The translations under genes and the position numbers were made by a program. The notes beneath the pieces are model-generated. The model had not been told where the DNA came from. It saw only the letters and a list, made by a program, of their open reading frames with translations, and made no database searches. Positions 508 through 58,999 of a stretch of DNA of 64,000 nucleotides are shown in pieces. Origin of the DNA: Isurus oxyrinchus (lineage: Eukaryota); NCBI GenBank assembly GCA_026770705.1, contig JANJGN010000041.1, forward strand, positions 5,022,001-5,086,000, written 5' to 3'. How positions within the stretch are numbered: position 1 is the first letter of the stretch; each line of letters opens with the position of its first letter.

Positions 508-1389
508 GCATTGAATGAGTTTTAAAATTGTAGTGAAGGGGATATTTCAGCTGCTCTCTGAACTTAGCCTGGATTATTGCTTAGAAACAAGTCTTTGTGC
601 AGCAGCTCAGGAGCTGCAGCATGAAGTCTATTTCTCTAATATAAATAGGTGGATTTATAGAACTGCAGCCCAAAGCTACCAATCACCACCACAGGGAAAA
701 CATCGTGAAGACAGCCAATAACAGAATGAAATTGACCGGGATAACGTGCATTAAAATGATGGATCCCTCCCACTCTCTTTCTCTGCGTCTCTGGTAATAA
801 CACCATTGCTGTGAGCCTGTATACTACTGCAGGATCTGCTGCTCACTAAAATATGCCTGACCTTTAAAACATTGAGCACTAGAATGGGGGAAAATTGGAC
901 ACCTGGCGATACAATCCAATGAAACATCTCGATTGCTGCCCATGGACGTGACTTCTGAGCATCTAATATCACAACACAAAACCAGGGGAAATTCATCTTC
1001 CAATACTCCATGGTACACCAAAAATACCAGAACACATTCTTCAAACAGCTCAACAAATACTGCACACAGAAACACATGTGCAGTTTTTTCAGTGTAAGTT
1101 TCGTTCTCAGCTTACTGCAACAAATAGCCACAAATGGGTCGAAAGTAAAATGACAGTGAACCAGACAGAACAGTCTGTGACTGCACAAAGCAGAACAGCA
1201 TGGGAGTTACACACATGCATCTAAAGAAGAAACGTATACTCGAGAGTATAACCAGTTTCAAGGTGCCTCAGTATGAGTTCGATGAAGACGACCAGCAGAT
1301 CTGCCCCTTTCAGGCCACAAAGTAGTAAGTGACACATTTCGAGAGGCCACACATTCCTTGAGAAATGATTACTATCGTCAGTACGTTAA
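508..1389 (-). pseudogene. GPR139-like: GPR139-like GPCR pseudogene, copy A (exon 2: TM1 end to TM7)
   Basis: Minus-strand acceptor (ccccctttgtcgcag), then (V)NVLTIVIISQGMCGLSKCVTYYFVA..ADLLVVFIELILRH..VCNSHAVLLCAVTDCSVWFTV..FTFDPFVAICCSKLRTK..LKNVFWYF..NFPWFC..FMLQLLSCCTKT..KFREQLKYPF. Colinear with the intact copy at 62012-62889. Frameshift/stop near 1310, stop at 1221-1223, further frameshifts near 1150 and 765. Confidence 0.93.
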
Positions 1390-2162
1390 CTGCGACAAAG
1401 GGGGACAAACAGTTCAATTATTCTTCATGCAGGAACGAGTTGCCAGCTGAACAGAATATGGTTGAATATTGCAAATGCCTTGCTGTGCCCAATTATGTCT
1501 TCAAACTCTTGCGTCCATGACACTGCTATCCACTGGAGAATGGTGTTTTCTTTAAATATTATGGAATACTGAATGAGTAATATTATCAACGATGGGATTT
1601 GCCATCAGCACAATTCGCACCTCAAAATGAGTTACGAATGTGGCAAAGATACAGTAATATTTTCTGAACACAAAGAGAAGAGACAAATGCCACTTGGAAG
1701 AATGAAGCCAACCCTCAATCAACTGGTCAGATTAAAGCTCTGCGTTTCTGTAACATCAAATGTTGCGTTAATTAAAAAAACAATCAACTTACCAGAGGAG
1801 GAGGCTGTGCAGTCAGTTACATTCTCAGTGATCTGATCCCACTGCAGGTCAGCACAAAATACCCAACTGCAAGATTTGTAAACATATTCCGACAGAAGGA
1901 CTGAGTGGTTGATCCATCCTCCTCAATTGCCCTGAATCGCCGATGCTTGACATAAGCTACTTCGATTCATATTGGTTATATCAGTGGAGATGTGAGCTCA
2001 CTGGACACAGCAAAAGCCCCAGCGCTGGCTGCATCTCTACCACAGCATTGAGGACTTGTGCCCCAGAATTAGCCGCAGCTCCATCCAAGCTGCTGCAGGG
2101 CAAACAGATGAGAGGCACCTGCTGGGAGAAATGGGCAACTGCCCTGTAATGTCCTGTACAAA

Positions 2163-2571
2163 GACACACGGACACACAAACATATGCACATGCACAAGCG
2201 CACACAAACACACACGCACACGCACACACACACTCCCTTCCCAACATACACACACACTCAAACAGACAGATGCACGCAAACACACACAAATACACACTCA
2301 CACACAGAAACTCGCCACCACACACACTCACACACATTAACAGAAAAACACACACACACACACACGTAGGCACACACACACACACACACAGATACACACG
2401 CAAAGAACGGAAGAATGGGATTGATCCCGTTCATCAGCAATGTGTTGTAATGTGTGACTAACACACACACACAAACGCACAAACACACACTCACACTCAC
2501 CCAAACCCCCTACACACGCACACGCACACTCACATATACACAAACAGACACGCACACACACACTCACATGT
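2163..2571. repeat. Imperfect (CA)n microsatellite running into an assembly gap (N 2572-2753)
   Basis: Seen directly in the sequence. Confidence 0.97.
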
Positions 2572-3029
2572 NNNNNNNNNNNNNNNNNNNNNNNNNNNNN
2601 NNNNNNNNNNNNNNNNNNNNNNNNNNNNNNNNNNNNNNNNNNNNNNNNNNNNNNNNNNNNNNNNNNNNNNNNNNNNNNNNNNNNNNNNNNNNNNNNNNNN
2701 NNNNNNNNNNNNNNNNNNNNNNNNNNNNNNNNNNNNNNNNNNNNNNNNNNNNNTGATCTCAGTCATCAACAATGTGATGGAATGTGTATTTGGCCGGGAA
2801 AGCAGGCGCCAATTGCGCAGTTGAAACCTGGGCACCGAATCTCACTCTGTATTCAGCTAAGATCAGTGGCTGGCAGGCGTCATTGCAGCCATGGCCTTAA
2901 CAGGGCAGAAACAATCAATTCAAGAAAAATGAATGGGAGTGACTGCGCATGACTTTAGGCCGCATTTGACACTATGTGGGCCGGCAGTCCGGAGAAAGGG
3001 AAGTGCTTTACGTTGTTTGAGGCTAAGTA

Positions 3030-3520
3030 ACTGCTCCTGGAGTCCCTCCACTTAGTGCCATAGTCTCAGACATCTTCAACTGCTCCAGCAATGGATTCCC
3101 CTTAATCATAAGGACAGGACTATCGTTGTTCACTGAGCATTGTACATTGCACAGCTCTATTCCTCACTCCTGGAAAACTGAAGTGGAACGTGTGCTCCCA
3201 CAGCACTGCACACGCAAAATTCAGGCTAATTCTGGTCAGTTTCGACAACATTTGCAAGACAAAATTGGCAGGCAACGCCTATCAGTAGCATACGATGATT
3301 ATATGATGTTGAGTGCAGACAGTTAAGGAGGTGTAAGAGTAATGCAGCGAATGGTAGCTTTTGGAATATTTACTAGATACAGAGTCTTACAAGGAACAAC
3401 ATTAACAGTGAAGAGAGGCGCCATTCAATGACAGGGACACCAATAAAATAACATCTGTCTGATAGAAACAATGCTGGGTGCAGAGACTCACCAGCAACTG
3501 CAAGAGCACCGAGCGATGGA
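3030..3520 (+). mobile_element. Decayed LINE (CR1/L2 group) reverse transcriptase fragment
   Basis: Degenerate GVP..S..(G)P.IF.C..N..P.II......LF.(D/E).C motif, resembling the RT GVPQGSVLGP...FADD region. Many mutations. Confidence 0.6.
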
Positions 3521-3727
3521 TAGTAAATTTCTTGAACCACATAGAGGAACATTTCAATCCTCACATCCAGGGAATAACACGGGTGCATTCACTGCCTCTC
3601 TGTGGAGCTCCTGGCCTTGGATAGACGCGGTGCTGTTGTTCACACTGACTGTCTGGAATAACAGTTTGGATTGGTTTTCCCGATTAATATCATTGGAATT
3701 CCTTTGGTGGCACAGTGAGTGTCTTTC

Positions 3728-7290: not shown

Positions 7291-7378
7291 GTCGCTACAT
7301 TCCGTTCTCTCATATTGTCAGCGGGGACATCAGCTCCGTGAGGAACAAGAACCCGCGGTTATACGACAGGGAGAGAGG

Positions 7379-7641
7379 ATATCAGAATCTGAGAAGAATA
7401 TATTTGAATGTTCCAACAATGGATCTGATTCTGAGAAAAAATGATTGGAATGTTACAACAATGGATCGGGATCTGAGGACAATAGATCGGAATGTTACAA
7501 CAATGAGTAGGAGTATTTTGGAGGCGCTTTATGAACTTTATAATTGTTATGATTGGATGTGAGTGGAAAGCCGGATCTATCGGGCACTCCATGTTATTCA
7601 GGCGGGTTATTATCCCATCCTCGTTATTATTGGCATCACAG
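7379..7641 (+). pseudogene. GPR139-like: GPR139-like copy B, exon 1
   Basis: About three 14-aa repeats (YQNLRRIYLNVPT, MDLILRKNDWNVTT, MDRDLRTIDRNVTT), then ..DWM*VESRIYRALHVIQAGYYPILVIIGIT and a phase-1 donor G|gtaagt at 7642. In-frame TGA at 7560-7562. Confidence 0.9.
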
Positions 7642-7829: not shown

Positions 7830-8266
7830 TCTCTTGTCTTCCACTATATCGGAGACATTGCGGTCTATTATGGCATGAACAATAGTTCCAATACTGCACT
7901 GAATGCAACAAAATATTGAAAAATTTCAGCGCCTTGTGGCAAACTGATACTTGTTATTTGCAAGTAATCAGGTTGTTTATTGGGAATGGTTTCATTTCCT
8001 GTGGGCCATGCGTCTGAGTCATACACATGCCGTACTGCTTTATGCAGCCACTGGCCTTTGTCTGTGATTCTGTGACTTTCACATTTGATCGGTTTGTGGC
8101 CATGTCTTTCCTGAAACTGAAAAGTAAATATTGCACCGTGAAATTGGCTCTGAGAAGAATGACTGTGCTAAGCTTTTTAAAGAATATTTTCTGGTATTTC
8201 ATGTTACCAGATTCTTGTATGCTGATGAGCAATCCATGATTTTGTTTTAGAATATTAAAACTTCAG
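7830..8266 (+). pseudogene. GPR139-like: GPR139-like copy B, exon 2 5' part (TM1-ECL2)
   Basis: LYRRHCGL..EWFHFLWAMRLSHTHAVLLYAATG..VTFTFDRFVAMSFLKLKSKYC..LSFLKNIFWYFML..NP*FC. Frameshifted; 5' boundary uncertain. Confidence 0.85.
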
Positions 8267-11200
8267 ACATAGAGTAATCGAGTCAAATTGGTCTGCAGCA
8301 CAGAAAAGTCGGCCCATCGAGACTGCGCCGGTCAGATAAGTACCTAACTATTCTAATCCCATTTTGCAGCAACAGGTCCATAGCTTTGTGTGCCTGGGCT
8401 TCACAAGTGCAAATCCAAATATTTCTGAAATGATATGAAGTTTTCTGCCCCGAAGACCCTTTTTGACAGTGAGTTCCAGATGCCCAGCACCCTCTGGGTG
8501 AAATAATTCTTCCTCACATTCCCTCTAAACCTCCTGCCCCATACATTAAATCTGTGACCTCTGATTATCGGACACTCCACCAACGGGAAAAGTTCCATCC
8601 CGTCTACCCTACCTATGCCTCTCATATTTTTATACACCTCAATATTGTCCCCTCTCAATCTATTCTGCTCCAGCGAAACTAACCCCAGCATAACCAATCT
8701 CTCCTGATATCTAAACATTTCCAGCTCAGGCAACATGCTGGTAAATCTTCTCTGCGTCTGATCCAAACACATCCTTCCTATAATGCAGATTCCAGAATGC
8801 ACGCAATACACTAGATGTGGCCTAACCAGCGTTTAATACAGTTCAGCAAAACCTTCCTGCTCTTATATTCTATGCCTCCTCTAATAAAAGCAGATATCCC
8901 ATATTTTCTTAATCACCTTATCTACCTGCAATACTACATTAAGGGACCGCTGGACATGAACACCATGATTCACCTGATCCGCGGTACTTCCCAGGATCCT
9001 AACATTCATCATATTCCCGTGTCTTGCTTGTCCTGCCCAAATGCATCACCTCACCCTTATCTGGATTAAATTACATTTGAGAATGATCAGTCCATCTAAT
9101 CAGCCTGTCTCTATATCCCTGAAATCTGAGGCTATCCTTACTATTTACCACCCCACCAATTTCCGTGCTTTCCGCGAACATACTGATCAACCCCCCTTTC
9201 AATCTAATCTAAATAGTTTATGTATTCCAGAAACATCACGTGATCCAAAGCCGACCCATGTGGAACCCCACTGGACACATCTGGCATCCAGTCATAAGAA
9301 ACCCCAATAGACAATCACCATGTGCTTCCTGCTACTCAGCCAATTCTGGGCCCAATGCGCCAAATTGCCTTGGATCCCACGGGCTCTTACCTTCGTTATT
9401 AGTCTCCTGACCAAATCAAAAGCCGTGTTGAAGTCCAAGGTGACTGCATCAAATGCATTGCCATAAATTAGATATCTGATCACCTCTTCGTAAAATACAA
9501 TCAAATTAGTCAGGCATTATATCCCCTTAACCAACCCAAGCTGATGGTCCTTGATTTCCCCTGCCTCTCCTAGTGCAGATAAACTATCGGCCTCAGAATT
9601 ACTTCCAATGATTTACCCACTGATGTTTGACTGACTGGTCTCTACTTCCCACTAAATCACTTCCTCCTTTCTTGAATAACGGTGCCACGTTGGCTCCTCT
9701 GGCAACTTTCCTGTGGTTAGAGACGTGTTGAAAATTATTTCCAGCGCCCCTGTTGTCTCCTCGCTTGCTTCACTCAACAGCCTGGGATCAGCTTCATCGG
9801 GTCCTGGAGATTCATATTATTTTAAGCCTGTCAGACCGCTTAGAACCTCTTACCTATGGTTGCTATTTTTTCTTAATTATCTCACAGCCCATTTGCATAA
9901 TTACTATAAGCCCTCTCAATTGCCAGCACCAATATAATTCATTCATTTAGAATATGACCTGTGTCTTCCGGATCCACAAACAATTTTCCACCTTTCTCCT
10001 TAATGGGCTCCATTCTTTCCCTAGTTATCCTCTTACTCTTACTCAAATTGTAAAATAACATTGTATTTTTCTTTATTTTTCCTGCCAATGATTTTTCATG
10101 CCATCTTTTTGCTCTCCTAATTTCCTTATTAAGTTGTCCCCTTGACACTCTATTCTCTTAAAGGGCTTCCACTGTTTTGGGCTCTCGTTAACTGCCATCA
10201 GCCTCTATTTTTCTCCTTATCCAATCCTGTCTATCCCTCGAAATCCAGGTGTCCCTGGACTTATTGGTCCTGCCCTTTATTGTTATTGCTAAAATTTGGT
10301 CCTGCGCTCTCTATATTTCCATCTTGAATGAGTCACACAGCTTCGAAGCAGTTCCCAGCCCACTCAGGGAAAATCATACCTGATCTTATTGAAATTGGCC
10401 TTCCTTCAATTTTGAACTCTGATTTCTGGCACTCCCTTGTCCTTTTCCATAACAACATTAATCTAATACAGTTATGATCAATAAGCACAAAACGCTCCCC
10501 CAATGATACCTCTGCCACATGCCCGGCTTCATTCCCTAAAATTAAGTCCAGGACCGCCCCTATTTTGTAGGACGTTCGACGTACTGGTTTAAAAAGATAT
10601 CCTGGTTGCAGTGTAAGAATTGATCTCCCTCTAAACGTACCATACTATGGCTAATCCAGTTAATGTTGGGGAAATTGAAATCTCCAACTATTACTACCCT
10701 GTTATTTTTACTGAGCTCTAAGATTTGCCTACATATCTTCTCTTCCATTTCTCTCTGAATGTTTGGCGACCTGCGGTACAATCGCAGAAATGTGATTCCT
10801 CCTGCTTTTTTGTCTTTTTTTTCAGTTCTATCCATATGGCTTCTTTTGAAGAGCCTTCTAGGATGTCATCCCTCTTTACTACTGTCAGTGATTCCTTGAC
10901 CAATATTGTGAAACCACTCCTCTTTTACCTCCTTCCTTGTCTCCCCTGAAGACCCAAAACGCTGGGATTTTGAGCTACCAATCGTGCCCCTCCCTCAGCC
11001 ATGTCTCTGCGGCAGCAAGGATATCATACTTCCATCGTTCAACTTATGCCCTCAAATCTGCCTTATTTGTCATACCCCTTGCATTAAAATAAATGCCATC
11101 CAACCTTGCCAAATTCGCTTCTGCCTTAACTGGCCTATATGTTCTCTGCCTTCAAGCATCATTAGCTCTCTCTTCTAATTTAGGATGTGCAAATGCCCCT

Positions 11201-12478
11201 GCTGAGCAGGCACTCAGGATCCCATCCCCCTGCCAAGTTAGTTCAAACCCTCACCATCAACATCAGCAAACCTCGCAAAAGGATGTTGGTCCCATTGCAC
11301 ATCAGGTACTGCCCATCTGCATTGTACATTTCCTGCTACCCACATAAATCGTCTCAATATGCTTGAAATAGAATGTCTTCTCTCCTTCACCATTTATCCA
11401 GCCACGAGTTCAGCTGGACAGATCTCCAACGTCAATACTCACCAGTGCATGCCAGTGGAAGAAGTTCAGTGATCACTAAATTTGACGTCCTGTTTTTTAG
11501 GCTGCTTCCTGGATCCCAAAATTCTGTCTGTAGGAACTCATCTGTCTTTGCAGCGATGTCGTTGGTACAAGTATGTACCACAATCTCCCTCTGTTTGCCC
11601 TTCCACTTTAGAATGCCCTTCAGTGTCATCCTTCATCCTGGCACCAGGGAAGCAACATACCATCCTGGAGTCACTACAATGGCCTAAGAGACGGCTCTCT
11701 GTTCGCATTATTATGGACCCTCCAGCAACACTGATAATTCGCCTCTTTTTCCTTCCCTGTTGTGCAGCTGAGCCACTCAGTGCCATGAGCGTGGCTGCAC
11801 TCCCCTGTCGAACCATCACTCTCACCACTTTCCAACACAGAAATATGGTTCTCGAGTGAGATGTGCACTCGGGATTTCCTGACTACCTGCCTGACACATC
11901 TCTTCAGACTGCTGGTTAGCAATCCATCTTTGTCGGCTTTGGGGTCACCATGCCAAAAACCGTTCCAGCCACCAAACTCTTAGCCTTGCCAGTGCGCTTC
12001 AGCGCCTCCAGCTGCCGGTTCAGCTCTGACACTCGGAGCTCCTTTCGCTTTTGTTGATGGCAATGCCTGCAAACGTGGTTGGTCAGAGAGTAAGGAGCGT
12101 CTAAGACTTCTCAAATGTTCAACGCAGTACAGAACATTGGACTGAGTTGCCCTGCCATGTCTCTAGCTTGAAAAAACAGCCGTTATTTACTTTAAGTTAA
12201 ATAGAGTAAAAAAGGAACCTGATGTTATTTATGTAGTTTAAGTAAATAAATCTCTTACCTTTCCTTAGCTTAACCTGGGGAAAACACTTCCCCGTGACTC
12301 ACCATACAGCTCTCACCTTTGTACTGTCATGACTTTTTCAAGCATCCTCACACTCGCACTGGTTCTGATCTCTCCATCGCTCCCTCACACGTTTTTGATG
12401 TCAATATTCTTCTTCTCAAAAATATCTGCAAGCTACTCTTTCTAGACAGTTTCTCCGTGATGCTGACTGCAGGGCACT
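8267..12478 (-). mobile_element. Near full-length CR1 LINE (5'UTR, ORF1 zinc finger/esterase, ORF2 endonuclease-RT), degenerate
   Basis: ORF1 from ATG at 12158: MAGQLSPMFC..NHVCRHCHQ..ELRVSELNRQLEAL, then DSRMVCCFPGAR and IVVHTCTNDI. ORF2: EAIWIELK, NRVVIVGDFNFPNINW, LDFNTAFD, RLRGDNIEVYK..FTQRVLGIWNSL. 3' tail near 8270. Confidence 0.93.
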
Positions 12479-12480
12479 GT

Positions 12481-12533
12481 TTCAAAAACCATCTCCTATT
12501 TGGACAGCTGTCGAGCTCCTACATCACATTCTT
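12481..12533 (+). pseudogene. GPR139-like: GPR139-like copy B, residual exon-2 island between two insertions
   Basis: QKPSPIWTAVELLHHIL corresponds to SPVWVTIEFTHHIL in the intact copy. Confidence 0.8.
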
Positions 12534-12875
12534 GTTTTATCCACTCAACGTTGGCATCGCTGGCAAGGCTGGCATTTATTGCCCAGCCCGAATTGCCCTT
12601 GTTCAGAGGGTAGTGAAGAGTCAACCAAATTACTGTAGTTCTGGAGGAACATGTTGCCAAGCAGATTCCCTTCCCTAAAGGGCATTAGTGAACCAGGTGG
12701 TATATTGCAACGATCGACAATGGTTTCATCGTCATCATTGTGCTTTTTATTCCAGATTTTTATTGAATTCAAATTCTACCATCTGCCACGGTGGGTTTCG
12801 AAAACCTGTTCCTGGAGCATGTTGCTGGGTTTCAGGTCCATGGACAATCCCTCTACACCATCGCCCCACTGAATT
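12534..12875 (-). mobile_element. SINE-like interspersed repeat
   Basis: ggcatcgctggcaaggctggcatttattgccc...aaattctaccatctgccacggtggg. Related copies at ~23855-24110, ~25020-25090 and, in the opposite orientation, ~44460-44830. Confidence 0.75.
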
Positions 12876-13280
12876 TGCACCCTATGTGTCACAATTGTCC
12901 CTATTGTATTGCTCAATGTTATTACCATCACAAACATTTTAGTGAACAGCCGAGCCCGCAGGAGACTCCAGGCTCACAGCAGTGGGGAGAGCCCCAGAGA
13001 CACAGAGGCGGAGAGTCAGATGAAATCCATAATTTTACTGGTTATTATCACAGCCAATTTCAACCTGTTGTGTGCAATGTTAATATTGTTTTCTTTGTGG
13101 AGACGGATATCGTGCTCTGGGAAATTGCACGTTGATCTAGATTATATTGTGATGGAATTTGGCTTCACACTACAGATACCGAGTTGCTGTACAAACATTG
13201 GGATTTACGCCGTGACCGAGGATAAGTTCAGGGAGCAGTTGAAGAATGTACAGAGATATAAATTTACTCCAGTTGTTTAA
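12876..13280 (+). pseudogene. GPR139-like: GPR139-like copy B, exon 2 3' part (TM5-TM7)
   Basis: LLNVITITNILVNSRARRRLQAHSSGESPRDTEAESQMKSIILL..EFGFTLQIPSCCTNIGIYAVTEDKFREQLKNV. Confidence 0.92.
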
Positions 13281-13879: not shown

Positions 13880-14140
13880 GCCCTCTGACAGCGTAGCACA
13901 CCGTCAGTACTGATTCTCCAACAATGCACCGGTCCCTCAGTACCAAACCTCCGACAATGCGGCATTCATTCTATGCTGAATCACTGACAGCTCAGTGCTA
14001 ACTCCGTGCTGGTACTTCTATAGTGGAACAATTCCTCAGTACTGACCCTCAGACAGTGCAGAGCTCCCTCTGTACTGCCCCTCTGACAGTGCAGCGTTCC
14101 CTATGTGCTGACCCTCGGACAATGCGGCACTCCCTCAGAA
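13880..14140. repeat. ~33-bp minisatellite (cagtactgaccctc.gacagtgcagc.ctccct)
   Basis: About 7-8 degenerate tandem units visible. Confidence 0.85.
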
Positions 14141-16017: not shown

Positions 16018-16711
16018 ATGGATAATCAGTGTGGCACTGTCAGGGGGCAGCAGCTCCAATGCGAAGGAGAATATATATTAAAAACGGAGGACAATACATT
16101 GGACTATTATAATGATCTGTCCGAATCAAGAGCTGCAGCTTGGAATCTATCCATAATGGATCAGGATCTGAGAACAATAGATTGGAATGTAACAACAATG
16201 GATCAGAAACTGAGAACAATGAATTGGAATGTTACAAAAATAGATCAGAATCTGAGAACAATGGATTGGAATATTCCAAAACTGAATCAGAATCTGAGAA
16301 AAATATTTTGGAATATGACAAAAATGGATCAGAATCTGAGAAAGATAGCCAGGAATATTACAAAAATGGATCAGCAACTGAGATCAATACATTGGAATAT
16401 TACAAAAATGGTTTAGAATCTGAGAACAATACTTTGGGATATTTCAAAAATGGATCAGAATCTGAGAACAATACTTTGGAATTTTACAAACATGGATCAG
16501 AATCTGAGAACAGTAGGTTGGAAAGTTTGAACAATGGATTAGGACCTGAAAACAGTCGACTGGCATCATACAAGAGGCAGGAGGTTACCCTGGTATGTTC
16601 ATTATATGTTGACTATTTATTGTGGAATCACATTCAAATATCGGGTCGCAATGCTACTTCAGGTTATTTAATGTTCTTGCTATCCAATGCTCGCTTTTGT
16701 TGGTGTGCATC
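16018..16711 (+). pseudogene. GPR139-like: GPR139-like copy C, exon 1 with expanded N-terminal repeat; no exon 2 found
   Basis: Ten 14-aa repeats, then ..YRVAMLLQVI*CSCYPMLAFVGVH and a phase-1 donor C|gtaagt at 16712. Four in-frame stops, the first at 16414-16416. Confidence 0.88.
16156..16575 (+). repeat. 42-bp coding tandem repeat x10 (consensus ATGGATCAGAATCTGAGAACAATAGATTGGAATGTTACAAAA)
   Basis: Units start exactly 42 bp apart: 16156, 16198, 16240, 16282, 16324, 16366, 16408, 16450, 16492, 16534. Confidence 0.97.
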
Positions 16712-16914
16712 GTAAGTCTTCCTCTCTCCAGTTTTTAAGTATGTAAAGAATGTTCAATTGTAATGTTGTGCTTGAAATTCAAATTTGTATCTTTGGTTCA
16801 GTTGATATCACTGGATGTCTCTCTATCTAGCTATTATATCTGAAAGCCACATTTCACTGATTAGCTGCACTTTTTTCTTATTTTTCAGTTGAGCCTAGTG
16901 TGGATCGAAGCCAG

Positions 16915-18279: not shown

Positions 18280-21200
18280 TCTCCCTCGTTCCTTAAATTA
18301 TATTCCTCCACAATTTAGAAACTGGGTTGCTCTGTCTCTTTTGTTAATGCCGTTCTATTTCTACTTGTGCACTGGCTTGCTCTCGTTCGAGTTTAATGCA
18401 TGTGTTCCTCCTGGTTTTGCACGCTGTGCAGCTCTCCATCTCTCTTTAATTTTTTAAATGCATTCCTCCCCTATTTGCACACTGGATTCCTCTCGCTCTC
18501 TCCATAATTTACTAATTAGATTCTAAATCTATTTTGACAGCAGGTTGATCTCTCAAATTCATTATTTGCATTCCTCCTCCATTTGCACCCTAGGCTGCTC
18601 TCTCTCTAAAGTATTAATCATATTCCTCCTTTATTTGCACACTCTGTTGCTCCCTCTGTAAATTAATAATTGTATTCCTCGTCTTCTTGTTAATGGGGTT
18701 GCTTTCTCTCTCTCTCTCTCTGTCTCTTTCGTTGATTACATTCTTCCGAACTTCATAAACTCGGAAGCCCTGTCTAATTTATTCATTCATTTCTTCCTCC
18801 CTTTGATCGCTTGTTTATTCTCTCTCTGATTTAATAATTGCATCCCTCCTCGATTTGCATGCTGTATAGCTCTCCACTCTCCCTCTAACTTATTAATTAC
18901 CTTCCTACCGGATTTGCACCTTGGGCTGCTTTCTCTGTCTTTCTTCAAAGTGAATCACAAATCCAACACGTGTTATTCAGGTTTTCAGTTGCACGGACCG
19001 GCCAGGCTGACGAGGGCCTATTAACGCCTTTTAAAAACTAATTAAAGTAATAAACTGAGCTAGGCGTTCAGACTTAATGTTGGCATCAGGCGATCAGCCC
19101 GGGCGGTCTTCACATTTTTAATGGAACCTCATTTGCTTGTGGGATGAGTATTGTTGAAGTGTTTAAAAATTCAATGAAACATTTTTTTGAAAATTATTGA
19201 CATTTCCCAGCTCAAGAGACACTGTCTCACGAGAGGAGATGCATTATCTGTGTTTTCAGTGCATTCATTTTTAAAGCTGAGTGTTATTGCACATTGGGTT
19301 GCTCTCTCCTACTCTAAACTGTGTTAATTGCATTCTGTCTCGCTTTGCCCACTTTGTTTTTCTCTCCACAATGTATCATTTCCATTCCTCCTCTATTTGA
19401 ACACTGGATTGCTCTCGCTAGTTTATTAATTACGTTCCCTGACTATTTGTGCACTGATTCGCTCTCGCTAATTTATAAATTACATTGCCTCCCTAATTGC
19501 ATGGTTGGTTGCTTTTGCTAGTTTATTAATTACATTCCATGCCTACTTGCACAAAGTGTAGCTCTCCCTAATTTGGTAATTAGAATCACTGCCTGTTTGC
19601 AAACTGGGCTGCTGTCACTAACTTATTAAGTACATTCACTGCCTATTTGCAACATGGGTTGTTCTCGCTGGTTTATGAATTTGATTCCCAGCCTATTTAT
19701 ATATTGGGTTGCTGTCGCTATTTTATCAATTACATTCCCTGCCTACTTGCCAGCTGGGTTACTCTCGCTAGTTTAATAATTACATTCCCTGCCGACTTGC
19801 CAACCGAGTTACTCTTGCTAGTTTATTATTTACATTTCCTGCATACTTGCACACCGGGTTACACTTGCTAGTTTATTAATTAAATGCCCTGCCTATTTGC
19901 AGCATGGGTTGCTCTCACTAGTTTATTAATTACATTCACTGCCTATTTGCAACATGTATTCCTCTTGGTAGTTAATTAATTACATACAATGCCTGCTTTC
20001 AACATGGGTTCCTCTCACTGTTGAATTAAATACATTCCCTGCCTCTTTAAACGCTGGGTTGCTCTCGCTAGATTATTAAATATATTCCCTCCCTATTTAC
20101 AACTGGGTTACTTTCGCTAGTTTATTAATTACATTCCCTGCCAATTTGCACACTGGGCTGCTCTCGCTAGTTAATTAATTACATTCCAACCCTATTTGCA
20201 TACTGGGTTGCTCTCGATAATTTATTAATTACATTCATTGTCTATTGGCACACTGGGAGTCTATCGCAAGTTTATTAATTGCATTCCCTGCCTATTTTCA
20301 CAAGGGGCTGCTCTCGCTAATTTAATTAATATAACCCCTGCCTTTTAGCACACTGGGTTGCCTTCGCTAGTTTATTAAGTACTTTCCCTGCCTATTTGCA
20401 CACTGGGTTGCTCTCGCTAGTTCATTAATTACATTCCCTGCCTATTTGCACACTGGGTTGTTCTCGCTCATTTATTAATTAAATTCCCTGCCCAATTACA
20501 CACTGTGCTGCTTTCCATAGTTTATTAATTACTTTCCCTGCCTACTTGCAAACCGCGTTACTCTCGCTAGTTGTGTAATTATTCTCCCTGGCCTAGCTGT
20601 ACCCTGGGTTGCTCTCACCAGTTAATTATATTCCCTGCCTATTGCCGCACTAGGTTGTTTTTGCTGGATTATTAATTAAATTCCCTGCCTATTGGCACAC
20701 TGGGTTGCTTTCCCTAGTTTATGAGTTACATTCCACCTCTAGTTGCACACTGGTTTGATTTTGCTAGTTTATTAATAACCTTCCCTGTCTAGTTGCTCTG
20801 GATACTTTATTAATTACATTCTCTGCCTATGTGCGCACTACGTTTTCTCGCTAGTTCATTAATTCAATTCCCCTTCTATTTGCACACTGGTCTGTTTTGG
20901 CTCATTTATTAATTACATTCCCTGCCGATTTGCACACTGGATGCCTCTCGCTCATTTATTTACTTACATTCTCGTCCTATTTGCACACTGGATTCCTCTC
21001 GTTAGTTGATTAATTACTTTCCCTGCCTGTTTACACACTGTGTTGCTCTTGCAAGTTTATTAATTACAGACCCTGCCTATTTGCACCCTGTGTTGCACTC
21101 GTTAGATTAATACCTGCATGCGTTGCTTAGGTGGACACTGGGTTGCTTTCGCTGCTTTATTTTTTATATTCCCTACCTATTTGCACACTGGGTTTCTCTC

Positions 21201-22600
21201 GCCAATTTATTAAATAAATTCCCTGCCTATTTGCACATTGTGTTGCTCTCACTAGTTTATTAATTACATTCCCTCCCTATTTACACACTGGGTTGCTCTC
21301 CCTAATTTATTAATTACATTCCCTCCCTATTGGCTCACTGCGTTGCTCTCGCTAGTTTACTAATTAGATTCCCTACCTATTTGCACAATGGGTTGCTCTC
21401 GATAGTTTATTAATTAAAGTTGCTGCCTATTTGTACACTGAGTTGCACTTCCTAGTTAATTAATTCCATGCTCTGTTTATGTTGACACTGGCTTGCTTTC
21501 GTTAGCTTATTAATTACATTAGCTGCTTATTTGTACATTACGTTGCTTTCGCTATTTTATTAATTGCATTCCCTGTCTGTTTGCTAACGATTTTCCTCTA
21601 GGTAGTTTATTAATTGCACTTGTTGCCTATTTGCATCATAGGTGGCTCTCACTAGTATATTCATTACATTCCCTACCTATTTGCACACGGGTTGGCTCTC
21701 CCTTGCTTGCTAATTACATTCCCTCCCTATTTGAAAACTGGCTTGCTCTCTGTTGTTCATTAATTTCATTAACTTTCTATTTGCACACTGATTTGCTCTG
21801 GTTCGTTTCGCAGTTCTATTCATTCACGATTTGTGCACAGGTTTGCTCTATCTACCTCGACTTTATTTGTTGACCACTTACATCCTTTATGTGCACACTA
21901 GGTTGCTCTTTGCATCTCATTTTCTAATGTATTATTTGCAAAACACTAATTGCACACTTGTTTACTCTCACTCTCTAAATTATAATTGCATATCACCTCA
22001 ATTTTTACACTGGCTCTCTCTCTCGCTCTCTTTTTCTGTAATTAATTAATTACATTCCTCCTCTATTTGGTCACTAGGTTGACCTCACTCTTTCTCTCTA
22101 ATTCATTAATTGAGTTGATTCGATTTTTCCACCCTGCGAGGCTCTCTCTATAATTCAGGAATTGTATTCCTTCTCTATTTTCATACAGTGTTGTTCTCTC
22201 TCTCACTTCCCAATTTATGAATTACATTTTTGTCCACTATTTGAACACTGGGTTGTTCTCTCTCACTCTAATTTATTAATTGCATTCTACCTTTATTTGC
22301 ACACTGCGTTGCTCTCCCTCTCCAACTCAAATAAATTAATTACATTCCCCTTCATTTGAACACTGAGTTGCATCTCATTCTCTAATTTATTAATTGCATT
22401 CCTCCTCCATTTGCACTATGCGTTTCTCCCGCTAGTTTATTAGTTACATTCCCTAACTATTTAGACACTGGGTTGCTCTCGCTAGGTCATGATTTACATT
22501 CCCTGCCTATTTACAGAGTGTTTGCTCTCGCTAGTTTATTAATGAAATTCCCTACGTGATTGTGCACTGCGTTGGTCCCGCAAGTGTTTCAACTATATCC
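18280..22600. repeat. 50-bp satellite array (ctagtttattaattacattccctgcctatttgcacactgggttgctctcg), roughly 75-80 copies, interrupted at ~18960-19290
   Basis: 50-bp period checked (cactgggttg at 20401 and 20451). Homogeneous core ~19400-21700, with CT-richer divergent flanks. Confidence 0.96.
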
Positions 22601-30870: not shown

Positions 30871-31115
30871 GGCCACACTAGAAGCACAGCTCACATTTTC
30901 GGTCTCCATATTTACTTGCCGTGGCCACACTGGGAACACCGTGCGCTATTCTGGTCTCCATATCCATCAGATTGACCATACTTGGAGCACCATGCATAGC
31001 TCTGGTCTCGATAACCCTTGGTTAGACGATACTTGGAACACAATGTACAGCTTTGCTCTTAATATCTCTTGGTCTAGCCACACCTGGAGCATTATGCACA
31101 GTTCTGGCCTCCCAT
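30871..31115 (+). repeat. ~51-bp tandem repeat x5 derived from a CR1 RT segment
   Basis: Units (ggccacacttggagcac.gtgcacagttctggtctcca) start near 30871, 30923, 30974, 31025 and 31076. They encode the CR1 motif RPHLE.C.QFWSP. Confidence 0.8.
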
Positions 31116-32760: not shown

Positions 32761-33974
32761 TTAATCACTGTTACATTGAAATACAGGCTGCCATTTTTGA
32801 TCATCCGGAGTGCTAATCCAACAAATTACCTCTCCCAGCACCCTTTCATTCGCCTGTGATAATGACCCTCACAGCCTAACTGACCATGGTTACTAACCAA
32901 CTTTTAGTGACCGTGGAGGGGAGGTGGTGCTTTATTTACGCACTGCTGCCGTGCTCTATGTCGCTTTCTGGTCATCCTGAATGTCCCAATGGTGACTTTT
33001 GTGAGGATTTCAGGAGAGGGCAGCCGTGGATTATCCCTGTAAAATTACATTTGGAACGATTTCCCTCTGTCAGGAAGCAGGAAATGATACCTGACATTTC
33101 AAATAGTCTCCAGTCTCCCGATGAGGAATATCCGGGACTGGTTGCTGTCCTGTTCTTTAGATCATTTCAAACAATGAAAATAAATGGACCTTTATATATT
33201 CTTGTGCCATGCAGGTCTGCTAATTCATATATCGATTCTTCTCTGTTAAAGTGGGTAGATTTTAGGGTTGAATGGAATTGGGAGCGCGCTATAGGCCAGC
33301 ATATGGAATAAATTAAAAAAGTTGGAGACAGACAGTCAAAAGAAAGGGAGTGTCCTCCAAACGTCCGTATGTCTCTGAAAGTGGTAACCCAGGATCTCTT
33401 CTGCAGCCTCAGCTGCCAGCTCAGTAAAATGCACATACAATATGCTCCAGCATGGAGCTTTATATCAAAGATTGTTAGTGGCATTCAGCGAGATGCTGAC
33501 CAAATTATCGAGATCTGTGTGGAAAATTGGAAAGGTGCTTTTATTGAGCTAACTGGTTCGCAAATCTTTGACAGTACAGGCAAAGCTTGAGAGAGCGGGG
33601 CCCATTCACATACGCAATAGATAATAACTAGGTTATTCTAGGAAAGGTAATCAACTACGAGAAGGGTGTTGTGCCCATGGCTAACTCAGCAAGACAAGTG
33701 CCTTTTACCTGGAAAGAACGGTGTACAATGAAGCCAAAATTAGCACTAGGCCAGGTAACTGAGAAAATGTTGGCACATGCTAAACAGTTCCCAAAGACAA
33801 TTCAGTTGGAGACATTAGGATATGCCTGGCAAGAAATGTGGCAACATGCATAAAAAGAGCCTTCAAACAATCATGAAGCAAAAGAGGAACTAAATGTTAG
33901 TCACATAGTGGGCGAGCTTTGGGAATTAAGCGGGGGGTGGGGGGGTGCATGGGGAAATTGCAGACGATTATATT

Positions 33975-34325
33975 TTAAACAGCGCAAAATCCCACTCAGG
34001 TATCACCAATCTGGCGAAAGTATTATAACAAGCACCAATTTTATGCACTGATCAACACTCTGTTCATTGTATTTTAATGAGCAATAAATCCCACTCATAT
34101 ATTACCACTACACTGAATGTACTTTAACTAGCACTAAATCCCATTCATTTATCAATACCCCGCTGAATGTATTTTAACCAGCACTAAATCCCATTCAATT
34201 ATCACCACTCTGCTGAATGTATTGTAGCCAGATCAAAATCCACTCACACTGCTGCATGTATTAACCAGCTGTAAATTCAAATCACTTATCAACAATTTCT
34301 GAATGTATTTTAACCAACAATAAAT
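33975..34325. repeat. 50-bp minisatellite x~7 (aaatcccattcatttatcaccactctgctgaatgtattttaaccagcact)
   Basis: aatccca recurs at 34087, 34137 and 34187. Confidence 0.9.
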
Positions 34326-34539
34326 AAAATCTATGGTCGGGGAATCTTAAAAAAATTGTATATAATAAAATTAGGGAATTAGTTTACTAAACATATCCTA
34401 AATATATGTCAACATGACGATTTTATGCTGATGATTTAAAGTTGCTGCACAAACGCGTAACTTTATGTGGTTAGTTAATCCAAAATCAGACAGCAGTTAA
34501 AGATATTGCTGAAGGATTGGTTACACATATCAGTCAGAG

Positions 34540-37619: not shown

Positions 37620-40560
37620 TTGAACATTTTCGCAGCTAGTCTAAATATTCTGTTTCAATTAATTCGTGCAAGGTCTCTTGCAGAATTTTGATCCCGTTTG
37701 TAAACTTTATTTCCAAGAATGAGATCCAGCAGGATCTCATTTCTCTTGGAAGTGGAAACACACTGCTGTAGAAATGTTTTTGAGCAGAATTCAGGAACTG
37801 TTACCATCACTGTCTGCATGAGAGAAATTGGACTCCCTCATTTTAAGTTTTCTACAATGTTTGCAACTCACTGTGATGTCCGTGCCAAATTCTTCCAACA
37901 CATCATTCTCACTTATTGGTGACCTATAGACCACACCAAGAAATTTAATCAGACCTATTTTGTTTCTTACCTCTACACAAATAGCTGGTGCCCTTACCAA
38001 TTTGAGTTAGCCTCTCTCTACTGCACAGCAGCACTCTTTTTAAACAGTTCCATCAACCCTCTCCATTTCCTGCTTAACTAAATTTCCCGAATATTTTGAA
38101 TCCAGGAGTATTCCAGAGACAGTGCAGGCCTTCATCCAACCAGCTCCTTTGGCACCACCCCATGCCCACGCAAAAGATGTAACACCTGCCCCTTCACTTC
38201 CTCTCTCCTCACCGTCCAAGGGCCCAAACATTCCTTTCAAGTGAAGCAGCATTTCACTTGCATTTCCCCCAACTTAGTCTACTGCATTCGTTGCTCCCAA
38301 TGTGGTCTCCTCTACATTGGAGAGACCAAACGTAAACTGGGCGACCGCTTTGCAGAACACCTTCGGTCTGTCCGCAAGAATGACCCAAACCTCCCTGTCG
38401 CTTGCCATTTTAACACTCCACCCTGCTCTCTTGTCCACATGTCTGTCCTTGGCTTACTGCATTGTTCCAGTGAAGCCCAACGCAAACTGGAGGAACAACA
38501 CCTCATCTTCCGAATAGGCACCTTACAGCCTTCCGGTCTGAATATTGAATTCAATAACTTTAGGTCGTGAGCTCCCTCCCCCATCCCCACCCCCTTTCTG
38601 TTTCCCCCTTTTCCCCCCCTTTTTTTTCCCTATAAATTTTATAGATTTTTCTTTTCCCACCTATTTCCATTATTTTTAAATATTTTAAAATCTTTTATGC
38701 TCCCCCCACCCCCACTAGAGCTGTACCTTGAGTGCCCTACCATCCATTCTTAATTAGCACATTCGTTTAGATAATATCACCAACTTTAACTTTAACACCT
38801 ATGTGTTCTTTTGTACCATTGTCACTGACATCTTTTGATGATCTGTTTCTATCACTGCTTGTTTGTCTACACAAGCACCTCTGTCTCTCTCTCTCTCTCC
38901 GCCCCCCCACACACACACCTTAAACCAGCTTATATTTCAACTCTTTCTTGGACTCGAAATCAAGTTCTGTCGAAGGGTCATGAAGACTCGAAACGTCAAC
39001 TCTTTTCTTCTCCGCCGATGGTGCCAGACCTGCTGAGTTTTTCCAGGTAATTCTGTTTTTGTTTTGGATTTCCAGCATCCGCAGTTTTCTTTGTTTTTAG
39101 CTCCTTTTTATGCCCACCAAATGATACTTCCACACTGAAACCTGTTTGTGTAATTCACCAACCTTAGATACCACAGCCTGAACATTCACGCTAAAATACA
39201 ATAGCCCACAATTAGATTTTATTACTTTCTAGTTAACGTGGCCTTTCCTATTAATGTTCTATTCCATACAGAAGTGCCATATATCCCTCACAATTTTCTG
39301 CAGACATTGTCATTTATCTATGTTACTGTTTATTGGTTCCCACTTCACAATTCACGTTAATTCAAATGCTCCACAGTTACACAGCTCGAACGCCCAAAAG
39401 AAGCTCTATGTTGGTGCAAATATAACGGCCTATGCGGAACCCTTCTCTTCCAGAACCAGCCTCAATGTCACAACAATGTAAAACCCTTTCTCAACTTGCA
39501 TCTTCCTCGAAACACATTCATTTTTTTGATCCGTCAATTTTGTAACTTCCTTGCACGTGACACTTGGAGTAATCTAGAATTTAAAATATTTGAACCCCTG
39601 CTTGCGAAATGCCAACCAGGAACCCTAAATGCAGACTGCTGGGCCACAGCACTCCTCCTACCGACGGCATTGGAACCATTGTATTTTCTGTTGTTGAGAA
39701 CTTCCCTTTGAGAATGCATTTGTAGCCGAACACAGACAGCGATCTTGGCGCCTAGGAGGGAACACAACTCCCTGGACTGAAAGTACCACAGTAATGCTTG
39801 CCTACTTCCTATCGCTGGAAACAACTAACACTAATGCTCTTCAATGCTTCATTTTTAACCCACTTTATAGATATGCAATCAATTATGCCATAACCCTACC
39901 TCCTGTTGCGCTTCTCAGAGAAACCAGATTGTCATTAGTATTGCATTCTGAAACCTCCTTCTGGAATATGTGGCAAGCAGACTGCCTGCAACTTATCTTT
40001 CCTTATTTGAATGGTGGATCGACATCTATTCTCAATGTCAACGCATAGACATAAGCTGGAAGGTGACTACATCTATCAATGCAAAGCCCACAAATCTGTC
40101 AAAAACCTGGATTAAATGTATTCATGCCAGCTGCCGATGTACTTCCAAAACCCAGAGCTCAATATGTTGCTTTCGATGGCAATTCCTGCAGAAATTATTG
40201 TCCAGGACGCAGGGTACATTTTGGAGTCCCACATTTCACATAACGTACACTCCATCAGTTGGAGAATTTGTCATTCTTCCGTGTCTTCATTAAGCTTACT
40301 GATGCAAATAAACCAACACAACACGAATAAAACTTCCTAATACTATTAGATCTGTGTGCTATGAATTCAGCTTACTGAAACTGCTAAATAGGGATGATTC
40401 TTAAGACACCTTACTTAGGCGCAGAGTTTATTCACTGGTTACTCATTGTTAATAAATAACAGTTTTACTGCTTTGAGGCTGCAAGTTATGTTGGGTTGAG
40501 TCCGTAAATTTCAATACTCATCGGCCATAACTTACTCATGCCCTTCAATTTCCCACCTTG
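37620..40560 (-). mobile_element. Degenerate CR1 LINE 5' half (ORF1 and endonuclease), interrupted by a Penelope-like element
   Basis: Minus strand: ECTLCEMWD..NNFCRNCHRKQHIELWVLEV; FQSRELCSLLGAK; ILNSRLLQVSRA..RIKKMN; AICVEVRNKIG..LGVVYRSP. Confidence 0.8.
38151..39098 (+). mobile_element. 5'-truncated Penelope-like element with intact GIY-YIG endonuclease C-terminus
   Basis: ORF 38241-38570: HFTCISPNLVYCIRCSQCGLLYIGETKRKLGDRFAEHLRSV..VACHFN..RKLEEQHLIFRIGTLQPSGLN. Flanked by the direct repeat agctccttt (38142-38150 and 39099-39107). Confidence 0.93.
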
Positions 40561-46890: not shown

Positions 46891-49800
46891 GCCTTGTATT
46901 TTCTAACTAACTTGCAGCCAAAGCAGCCTGTCCTGCTGCCACAGTGCTGTGCATAATTGGATGTGACTGTTGCTGCTCTTTTAGATGCTTCCGTTCACTG
47001 AATTTATGAGAAGGAAAAAGGAACAAAGACACTTCTCTTAGGTTCTGGGTTGTTATGTCAGGTGTGTCATGACTGGAGGTAATGAAGCGAATAATAATTA
47101 ATCTGTGTGGATATTATTTGTATCTTCGTTTGTCTACGTGTGTGTGTGTGTGTGTGTGCGTTTTAGTGCAAGTTTATGTTTGTGTGTATGTTTNNNNNNN
47201 NNNNNNNNNNNNNNNNNNNNNNNNNNNNNNNNNNNNNNNNNNNNNNNNNNNNNNNNNNNNNNNNNNNNNNNNNNNNNNNNNNNNNNNNNNNNNNNNNNNN
47301 NNNNNNNNNNNNNNNNNNNNNNNNNNNCTTCCCTGAACTTCAATTTGGTAGAGAAGCCTCAGCACTATGAAAACGGAATAGTTTAATCAGTCATATTAAA
47401 GGAAAGCGCAATGTAGAGTACATGTTTCAAGTTATAAGTTTTGAACTGAACATTCTGGCCAAAAATCAAAACCTGAGCATGTTTATGAGCACGTGGGACT
47501 TTTAACCTACATACAAATTCACCCACGGGGAAATGGAGTGTATTTTAATGTTTCACAGTTTAACTTGGAACTTTGATACAGATGATTCTCAGTTGAATTT
47601 ATCCTGGTCAGAAACCTCTTTAAACCGTTGAAGAACTCAGGTTTGGCTCCTGACAAAGTTGCCAAAGGAGGAAAATAATTTTTATGGACATTTGTAAACA
47701 TTTGGCATTAATTTAAAATGCTTCAAGTTTCTGTGCAGAAATAATATTTTAAAATGTACCTGTAGAAGATTGAAAATGTCAGTTCGGCCTTACAATAAAA
47801 AGATAAGCCTGAAGCCTGGAATAATTTTGACAAAAATCCAATTTGGACAGTTCAAATAGAACTATGTTAAATGTTAAAAAGAACTATGAAAATTCAAATT
47901 GCAGACTCTTTCTTTCAAATCAGGTAAAAGCAGCGAACAGCGATACATTAATCCTGTCTTCAAGGAGAAAACGCTTATACACGAGAGATATCAGGTGAGA
48001 AATGCATTACAAAAAGCTGAAAGGCTTCAAAATAATAGAAATTGGATATATAGTTTGGGCACAACTGAAGAAAAGCTAATGGAAAACTTTAATAAAGCAA
48101 GTTTCACTTTTGATTGGGGAAGATTTTTTCGAAATCCGATGAAGTGAAGCAATTGTGTGCAAAGTTATTTCCGCTCCCACGACCAAACCCCACAACCACC
48201 AAACGCGCAGTGGAGTTAATCAGGTTGTGCTTATTGCTGCTTCCGTTTTACTTCATGATATAACCTTCGGATTTCCAGATTTATATTGGCACTCATGAGA
48301 TTTCAAGTTTCCAAATTCACAGACGTGAGTGAACATATCAACCCATTGAACTGTGGGTCATAGGCATGATGGATGGCTTGCGTTTGTGAACAAAGAGTTT
48401 TGTGAATTAAAGATAGAGCAACAAGTCATATTGGTCCAGCGAACTGGCCTCACCAGATCAGGCTGCTTGTTGCTATTAGTTATCTTTCGAGACAGAGTGC
48501 TAGAGAACGGGACTTCTGAGCAAACACACCGAACAATGAAAATGGGATTTCTCAACATCAGCTTTGTAAACCAGCAAGCCTGAAAACAATTGTTTCTGAA
48601 AGCGAAATTCATAAAGGAAACTGGACATCAGCTTCTATTCACCCATTTCAAAGGGAAATGTACCTGACGTTTAAGGGGATAAACAAATTCCAACTTTCAA
48701 AAGAAGAATGCTAATCGGAAACAATTCAGGCGGCTCCTTGAAAAAAACATGTTTTTTTTTGGAAGAAATAAATTGAACACTAAATTCAACATGGAGCAAC
48801 ATTAAAAATCGGACACAGCTAAAAGGTTACTTCTGTCAAACCAAAATTATACCTGAAGAAAGAACAAACAGGGCAAAACATGCTAATAACTGGAGTCAAG
48901 CGTTTGATTCCAATTTCAAAGATATTATCAAAACTTTTCCTTTTCAGCGCATTCGACCATGACTCAGTGCTAATGGCGCTCTAATTTGAAAACAAAATGC
49001 AGAACAATAATCACAAAATCGGTCAAACCTTCTCTGTCAGGCTTCAAGGCCATGCTGCCACCAGTGTATTACTCAGGGGTGCAAAATAAACTGGAAGTTT
49101 TGGCAGATCAAAAATGACTTGCGGTCGCCCAGGACACAGTTTGAAGAACATCACATGCTATCATCATGCCATTACAAGCCAACAAGCTATTACTAAATGA
49201 TATTCAGAGGTCTGTTAAATCCTGCCATCTTGTTATTGCATTGAGAATACTGCCTTTTCCGGTACGTAAGCATTAACCAAGCCCTCCAGTTTCTTGCCCT
49301 TCTTAATGTGAAAAACATCAAACTCCATCACTTTCAGCAGTTCAGCCTCTGCTTCAGTCTTTCCCTCCATCCCTGCCTCCACATTCTCTTGTTGTTCTGA
49401 AACGTGACCTTTCTGTTTCGAAGGCTTGTGAGCTGACCTCGAGGTACACCTGCCACGTTCCCGGTCTCGATCTTATGACCTTGAGCGGCCATGTCACCTG
49501 GCTCCCCTCACTTTGCCCTACAGTATTTCCCCAGGCCTCATGAACGAGGTGAGGTATTCAGTATTGCAACTGTATGAGGATCCGAGGAAAGGATTGAGGG
49601 TAAGATCTAGAAGTAGGGTAAAAAGGCAAACATCAGTTGTGAATTGGCAGAACCCACCTCCGGTGTCGTTCAATGTAACACATCAATTTCGTGTCCATGT
49701 ACGTTCTACTGAATGTAAAGAGTAGATTAATGGAATAACGTTAGATTGTTCTCTTTGATATAAGTTTCTCTTTGCCTACAAGCTTTTTATGAGAATTGAA

Positions 49801-49949: not shown

Positions 49950-50480
49950 GAAATCCCAGATTGAAGTTGATTGGCAGAATCCTGTATCCCCAGATTCAGA
50001 TCTCCAGCCTCCAGTAAGACGGATATTTTGGAAACGAATTTAAATTATATGTCCCCTGATTAGGATCTCCAGCCGACAGTAACAATTATGTTTTGGAGAT
50101 GAATTTAAAACCTGTGCACAATGATTCAGATCTCCAGTCTGCAGGAACAGGGATTTGTTGGAGGAGGTTTTGAATCTTGTCTCCACTTTTCCAGATCTCT
50201 ATCCTGGGGTACGTGGGAAGTTGTGGAGTTGAAAGTGAGTACTGTAGCCGCTGATCCAGATTTGGAGTCTGGAGTCAACAGCCATGGTTAGAGATGGACT
50301 TCAATCCTGTATCCATGGGTCCAGGTATGCTTTCAGACGTTCATGGGATGTTCTGGAGAAGGTTTTAAATCCTCTATGCATTGGTCCAGATCTGCAGTCT
50401 GCAGTCACTGGCATGTTGCTGAGGTGAATGTGAATCATGCACCCCCTGATCCAGATCTTCAGTCTGAAGCTTCAACGATG
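49950..50480. repeat. 65-bp minisatellite x~8
   Basis: ccagatctccag-like motif recurs near 49998, 50062, 50127, 50192, 50257, 50322, 50387 and 50452. Confidence 0.9.
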
Positions 50481-58350: not shown

Positions 58351-58536
58351 GAAAAACTTATAACCCTCCAGTCCTCGGATATCACTCCAAGGTGCACTTA
58401 CATGTCATGGTCAGTCAAACCCCTACTGGCAGCCTTCCATCCATTAGCGACCCACATACATCCGATAGAGGGCAGGTAATGTTCTATTCTGTTGTGATAA
58501 AAAAAATGTTGGATAGCAAGACGTTAACTGAACCAC

Positions 58537-58620
58537 TTTGTTCAGTCCCTGTAATTAACTTCAATCTCCCTGGATCCTAATTGTGTCACAGGAGGGTTCC
58601 ACTCTGCTATTTATATGGGG
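58537..58620 (+). promoter_or_regulatory. Putative proximal promoter of GPR139-like copy D (TAATTA site and TATTTATA box)
   Basis: Block conserved with 7207-7290. TATTTATA at ~58608-58615, about 140 bp upstream of the ATG. Confidence 0.55.
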
Positions 58621-58751
58621 CTCATTTCAATGTGCCTTCCCCTAATGTCAGAGGGACAGTCGCATTCAGCACTCACAAGGATCAACGACTCCATAGAGAG
58701 GGGGAGAAACAATATCAGAACCTGAGAATAATAGATTGGAATTTCACAACA

Positions 58752-58926
58752 ATGAATCAGAATCTTAGAAGAAAGTCTTGGAATGTTACAAAAATGGACA
58801 GGAGTTTATCCTCGGGGCTTTATTACCTTTCTCCAGATCGGATATCATTAGCTGATAGGATCCTGGGTGTAATTTCGTTAATCCAAGTGGGTTACTTTCC
58901 CATCCTGGCTCTTTTCGGTGTCACCG
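58752..58926 (+). CDS. GPR139-like: GPR139-like GPCR copy D, coding exon 1
   Basis: MNQNLRRKSWNVTKMDRSLSSGLYYLSPDRISLADRILGVISLIQVGYFPILALFGVT, then a phase-1 donor G|gtaaga at 58927. No stops. Confidence 0.88.
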
Positions 58927-58999
58927 GTAAGAACCTATATGCAACAATCTGTTATTTGAACCAGATTGACTGCATTGCCTTTACTGTCTTTTACATTTC

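Follow-up and report, generated by a model that had tools for sequence, protein, structure and literature searches.

A 42-bp repeat at the start of a shark receptor gene is best explained as a slippage-prone, in-frame module for a probably flexible, glycosylated N-terminal tail that is largely tolerated rather than tuned and in which the succession of ATGs cushions a gene against losing its first start codon; we give this explanation a probability of roughly 0.65. The repeat lies in a window of 64,000 nucleotides from Isurus oxyrinchus (assembly GCA_026770705.1, contig JANJGN010000041.1, forward-strand positions 5,022,001 to 5,086,000), by which we mean the whole stretch of DNA analysed. Positions below are those of the window.

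Repeat arrays among four copies of a receptor gene

A class A receptor gene with two exons is present in the window in four copies (A, B, C, and D). In exon 1 of copy C (plus strand), the stretch 16156-16575 consists of ten units that keep an exact 42-bp register, as delimited by Tandem Repeats Finder, a register count, and the positions of stops. The unit spans 14 codons, has the sequence MDQNLRTIDWNVTT, and is the usual N-terminal module of a receptor family expanded in sharks. Tandem Repeats Finder assigned the copy C array a period of 42 (8.8 copies, 83% matches, 0 indels, score 472) and also a period of 21 at 57%. Within the consensus, the two 21-bp halves share 14 of 21 bases, suggesting that the unit is probably an old doublet. 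An ATG opens 8 of the 10 units, and 6 of the 10 carry an N-x-T sequon. Two decayed units precede the array and were recognized by consensus match (16073-16155, plus strand): one at 16073 agrees with the consensus at 30 of 42 bases, lies 1 base out of register, and has no ATG, and a weaker one at 16114 agrees at 18 of 42 bases.

The remainder of copy C exon 1 (16576-16711, plus strand) encodes the linker and the start of TM1 and ends at a phase-1 donor GT at 16712. In-frame stops interrupt this exon at 16414 (unit 7), 16528 (unit 9), 16540 (unit 10), and 16669 (TM1). The three stops within the array, compared with 2.1 expected under neutral decay, are what such decay gives. The sole trace of exon 2 between copies C and D is a decayed TM7 remnant of 117 nt at 34401-34517 (plus strand; profile match, E = 7.5e-08), which we infer to belong to copy C. 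Neither an open frame nor a complete pair of exons, as a functional gene would have, is found in copy C. It is a pseudogene with four stops, a surviving phase-1 donor, and no exon 2 save the remnant; since the gene is dead, its ten units have no present function, and its array would be decaying neutrally. Diversifying selection or DNA-level constraint in this array was considered and rejected, as a codon-level deficit of synonymous changes (1 versus 7.6 expected, P = 0.002) was gone once shared variants were collapsed (5 versus 6.2 to 7.2 expected, P = 0.20 to 0.34).

Copy B exon 1 (7377-7641, plus strand) begins with three units at 7377-7502, the first without an ATG, followed by a linker with a stop at 7560, the TM1 start, and a phase-1 donor. 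Tandem Repeats Finder reported a period of 42 and 3.0 copies at 7381-7505; 2 of the 3 units open with an ATG, and 2 of 3 carry an N-x-T sequon. Exon 2 of copy B (7951-13277, plus strand) is broken by a frameshift, stops, and inserted DNA into pieces at 7951-8263, 12492-12533, and 12867-13277. Copy A (518-3552, minus strand) is likewise a pseudogene, with exon 1 at 3552-3492 lacking any unit and exon 2 at about 1396-518 split into four frame pieces with stops.

Copy D is the only intact copy in the window. Its exon 1 (58710-58926, plus strand) comprises unit 1 at 58710-58751, which has no ATG, unit 2 from an ATG at 58752, the linker, the TM1 start, and a phase-1 donor at 58927. The period is again 42 (Tandem Repeats Finder, 2.0 copies, 58714-58796), with an ATG opening 1 of the 2 units and an N-x-T sequon in both. 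Exon 2 (62012-62889, plus strand) is open to its stop and scores 51.4 bits against Pfam 7tm_1, whose curated cut-off is 30.5. Joined, the two exons predict a receptor of 350 residues with one in-frame unit and one sequon; the other unit precedes the first in-frame ATG (58752). The repeat reported by the first-pass annotation, with ten units in copy C, three in copy B, and two in copy D, was therefore recovered as described, as was its statement that most units are led by an ATG and bear a sequon.

Several other features lie near the arrays or elsewhere in the window. The first half of the unit holds an 11-bp near-palindrome (5+1+5; 16159-16171 and other units), which, judged by the protein change, is absent from the Heptranchias-type unit. 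Upstream of copy D are a TATA-like stretch at about 58608-58615 and a 36-codon open frame in another phase (58615-58725), which ends inside unit 1, 5' of the main ATG; the relevance of this frame hinges on where transcription starts. Downstream of copy C exon 1, a 50-bp satellite (about 48 copies, 72% match) occupies 19393-21799 and is flanked by 52- to 58-bp variants at 18280-18950 and 22239-22554. Degenerate minisatellites have periods of 50 (33971-34231), 65 (49993-50497), 33 (14034-14136), and 51 (30974-31111), and two N runs adjoin CA/GT microsatellites (2572-2753 and 47194-47327). A 156-codon open frame at 38100-38570 reads like what we take to be the GIY-YIG endonuclease of a Penelope-type retroelement.

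Unit number across predicted shark receptors

A search with copy D exon 2 retrieved 1506 proteins at an E value of 1e-10 or less among 1980 candidates. Among the best 120 of these 1506 relatives, 118 were named from ten shark species, 2 carried no name, and 55 came from one species; no ray or chimaera appeared among the named matches in this set. Searching with the repeat alone gave 71 matches among 8000 candidates scored, all of them shark-named. Pfam 7tm_1 is present in 70 of the 71, and the remaining protein is a truncated family member.

Units were counted in 197 proteins, of which 161 contain the TM1 anchor and 143 also the TM3 and TM7 motifs. The numbers of these 143 full-7TM models with 0, 1, 2, 3, 4, 5, 6, 7, and 8 units are 25, 31, 33, 29, 15, 7, 2, 0, and 1, in a set that is enriched for repeats and consists entirely of gene predictions chosen as open frames; the unit parser errs by about one unit in some rows, and some count gaps reflect the start site of the model. 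At least three units occur in 54 of the 143. The model with eight is P0126 from Pristiophorus, which has eight sequons and a complete 7TM region. Taken alone, the window, where expansion is seen only in pseudogenes, would fit the case that the first-pass annotation had named against itself, namely that intact genes never carry more than one or two units. The family does not bear that case out, and the central proposal, that a coding minisatellite sets predicted tail length and sequon number for each paralogue, holds across the 143 models.

The units have the properties of a coding variable-number repeat: they stand head to tail without indels, in multiples of three bases and in frame with TM1, and their number differs between homologous genes. 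Exon 1 frames taken from genomic contigs are likewise open from one to four units through TM1 into the intron.

Gain and loss of units

Unit number changes readily between close relatives. Among 121 same-species pairs at least 95% identical in the receptor body, 66 differ in unit count, some of them owing to model starts; a clean pair, P0002 and P0047, has five and four units with an identical linker. In a Scyliorhinus cluster with a 13-residue unit, protein lengths step by 13 residues. This is one of several lineage-specific unit variants, and the unit lengths seen (42, 39, and 21 bases) are all multiples of three. Units are homogenized within each gene, with 83% identity within and 58% between genes (19 genes). 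On a FastTree phylogeny of 138 family rows, from which 24 partial rows had been removed, the state switches between fewer than three and at least three units at least 27 times.

Contigs from four public runs point to near-copies of copy D. Several run across the intron, and at 58714 and 58778 there are loose ends that read as further upstream units, with orthologues and paralogues indistinguishable; among the joints listed for these contigs there is no splice joint. None of the sequencing runs listed as containing copy D exon 1 is an RNA run. In run X4 (57800-63000), some contigs are near-identical to copy D and others are about 87 to 90% identical through the intron, indicating that whole-locus duplicates of copy D exist. 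The small run X5 also covers the copy D intron and looks like shallow DNA.

These patterns are consistent with the following mechanism. The unit would be the family's ordinary N-terminal segment, consisting of a start codon and 13 further codons with one N-glycosylation sequon, built as a doublet of two related 21-bp halves. Whole units would be gained and lost by slippage or unequal exchange, independently in many genes. Extra units would be tolerated because the unit is in frame and located in the extracellular tail, so that the tails of paralogues come to differ in 14-residue steps and in the number of glycan sites. Selection on the number of units would then be close to neutral.

Alternatively, the number of units may work as an adaptive dial of the kind suggested for coding repeats in mucins; tail length and glycan load would then be selected in each paralogue to adjust the level of receptor at the surface, the access of ligand, or protection against proteases or pathogens. 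Such selection could explain the repeated switches on the tree, the sequons of P0126 (8 of 8 retained), and the variability of the adjoining linker and the extracellular loops, where column identity in the family is 0.50 to 0.67 versus 0.88 to 0.96 in TM2 to TM4. Neutral slippage, however, also yields frequent change, near-identical paralogues differ in count, and of the four arrays seen to reach at least eight units, three belong to genes that are broken or truncated (copy C, P0001, and P0127). Extra sequons are also often lost, with 55 of 91 kept in genes with two to four units. We therefore consider selection of this kind unlikely. Separately, we note that the most variable parts of the family, the N-terminal linker and the extracellular loops, recall chemosensory or immune receptor repertoires.

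Retention of sequons

If glycosylation matters to these receptors, about one site seems to be needed, with the others largely redundant. Of the 17 representatives with a single unit, 15 have a sequon, compared with 72 of the 110 units in representatives with several (P = 0.09). Four of the 55 representatives, one of them through an error of the parser, have no sequon in any unit, where 7.6 would be expected (P = 0.058). Both statistics are suggestive only. The sequon Asn itself is retained in 17 of 17 single-unit receptors. Over 178 distinct units, by comparison, retention is 0.87 for the sequon Asn versus 0.88 for the other Asn, and 0.61 for the sequon Thr versus 0.77 and 0.68 for the other Thr. 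These sequence comparisons suggest that single sequons are not specially conserved, yet that receptors tend to retain at least one.

Serial start codons

The first unit lacks a Met in 15 of 55 family representatives, and 56 of 72 non-first units begin with one. Loss of the first ATG appears to be buffered in such genes, the next unit supplying the start as in copy D; since each unit has its own ATG, the loss would shorten the tail by just one unit. This milder form of rescue is what stands of the earlier suggestion that serial ATGs could restore translation after an upstream stop. In copy C, the ATG of the last unit meets a stop two codons on and exon 2 is missing, and in copy B the stop at 7560 lies 3' of the last ATG.

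In the window, most unit ATGs are preceded by A at -3 and followed by G at +4, a strong context that favours use of the first ATG. Under the scanning model, the first ATG in a strong context is used, and nested isoforms would therefore need alternative transcription starts. A conserved leader runs into the units in one phase in 11 proteins and in another phase in 2, so the leader is probably noncoding. An ATG-less first unit, as in copies B and D, is probably 5' untranslated. The proposal that the units form the receptor N terminus probably does not extend to the first units of these two copies.

These observations bear on a further possibility, that most of the array is a 5' untranslated or promoter-proximal minisatellite, in frame by chance, with proteins starting at the last one or two ATGs. 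It would accommodate the ATG-less first units of copies B, C, and D, the differing phases of the leader, and a sequon that shows no extra conservation when all units are taken together. Against it, the unit-length variants seen are all multiples of three and the single-unit receptors all keep the sequon Asn, and with Met at the head of most non-first units and mostly strong ATGs in the window, any transcript that includes them would be expected to start early. We consider an untranslated array quite improbable and the units of the relatives to be putatively translated.

Structure of the predicted tail

In an AlphaFold2 model of P0126 built from 105 sequences, the 7TM region has pLDDT values mostly of 80 to 92, and the repeat (residues 1 to 112) stays below 50, a level that, with little covariation in the repeat, does not prove disorder. 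Compared with opioid, somatostatin, angiotensin, and GPR139 chains, the model gives target-normalized TM-scores of about 0.8. The 7tm_1 score of copy D and this match to the seven-helix fold place the family among class A (rhodopsin-like) GPCRs. A flexible tail is the simplest reading of the repeat in these models.

The repeat might instead form a rod that supports the receptor or brings it into oligomers, built either as a coiled coil in which each unit supplies two heptads or as a 14-residue beta-solenoid. Unit positions 1, 5, 8, and 12 are hydrophobic in a heptad-like pattern; units 1 to 6 of copy C resemble coiled coils of designed proteins in the PDB (best E = 1e-09) and, below the curated cut-offs, Pfam families of coiled coils. 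A single-sequence model places strands of period 14 in the repeat, at a pLDDT of about 55 or less. The two models conflict, however, as the alignment-based one shows no structure there. The 13-residue variant and lone half-units, both found in full-length receptors, would disrupt the heptad register, and many receptors have one unit only, making a rod very unlikely.

We give almost no credence to the re-use of copy C in another frame (acidic N-G-S-E-S-E-N, open for 199 codons at 16116-16715), as its 0 stops across ten units versus 3.5 expected (P = 0.02) come from one of six frames tested, its synonymous changes (6 versus 8.1 expected) are not in excess, and it has neither an ATG 5' of the array nor a Pfam match. 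The chimeric model P0127 ends in this same alternative frame.

Significance

A variable, putatively glycosylated tail is a family-wide trait of predicted shark receptors, and it is more probably tolerated than tuned. Repeats in coding sequence that determine glycan load are already known; our searches turned up no account of one that opens a class A receptor, includes the start codon, and recurs throughout a gene family. The family provides a natural series of zero to eight units on one scaffold, with which two questions could be addressed: how the surface delivery of a GPCR depends on its glycan number and the length of its tail, and what tail length is possible when no signal peptide is present. 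A length limit exists for the translocation of an N-terminal tail that lacks a signal peptide.

A broader scenario, which we hold to be doubtful, is that the family is an undescribed, GPR139-related shark repertoire with loops diversified like those of a chemosensory or immune family. The minisatellite would then be its dial, with genes, alleles, and alternative starts yielding ladders of receptors that bear zero to eight glycan units and are adjusted by them in surface delivery or in access to ligand, and with the longest tails capped by the translocation limit. The receptor family itself may matter more than the repeat. A whale shark genome paper describes GPCRs as relatively scarce in cartilaginous fishes, and the family was not found in 12 of its 24 supplement files (PMC8455134). 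In the literature searched, neither the repeat nor the expansion of the family is described, although subscription papers and unseen supplements, including that of a bioRxiv tandem-cluster survey, may contain an account. An ESM Atlas search with the repeat gave no usable match, which shows neither novelty nor absence; with copy D exon 2, the same resource returned clusters named GPR139.

Relation to GPR139 and to known coding repeats

The shark family is GPR139-related, GPR139 being its nearest characterized receptor by sequence, yet the relationship is distant and not one of orthology. GPR139 was the top match among 177,635 PDB sequences for copy D exon 2 (E = 7e-08) and the top match among PDB sequences for the family profile (E = 1.1e-14). 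In structural alignment, P0126 is 22% identical to GPR139, which ranks 39th by fold. Identification as a GPR139 orthologue was rejected, since this value is far below the 70% identity between human and zebrafish GPR139 stated in PMC7318219; the "GPR139" of the databases, and of the earlier annotation, is a best-hit label.

The shark receptors resemble GPR139 (human; PDB 7vug and 9m42) and GPR142 in being class A receptors, and GPR139 further in having two coding exons (PMC7318219). They differ from GPR139 in having many paralogues per genome and in the repeat: the match of GPR139, whose construct is a chimera, to the shark profile starts at TM1 and leaves the repeat uncovered.

Among coding repeats, the closest parallels named in PMC12776774 are the exonic VNTRs of MUC1, MUC7, MUC5AC, and ACAN, where in-frame copy number likewise sets length and glycan sites; these repeats mostly carry O-glycans or chondroitin, belong to single-copy genes, and vary between alleles. 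The shark repeat, in contrast, has an N-sequon in each unit, stands at the extreme N terminus of a 7TM receptor, includes the start codon, and varies between paralogues. The stalk repeats of GP1BA and SELPLG are comparable in-frame VNTRs of glycoproteins. Zebrafish NLR-B30.2 proteins also combine variable N-terminal peptide repeats with a large lineage-specific fish gene family, but these repeats are about 30 residues long, each has its own exon, and the proteins are NLRs (PMC4852459). Shark units are 14 residues long, share one exon, and are predicted to be extracellular. The VNTR of DRD4, confined to a single gene, repeats a 48-bp unit within the third intracellular loop and includes neither a glycan site nor a start codon. 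It is nevertheless like the shark repeat in being a coding VNTR within a class A GPCR, as listed in PMC12776774.
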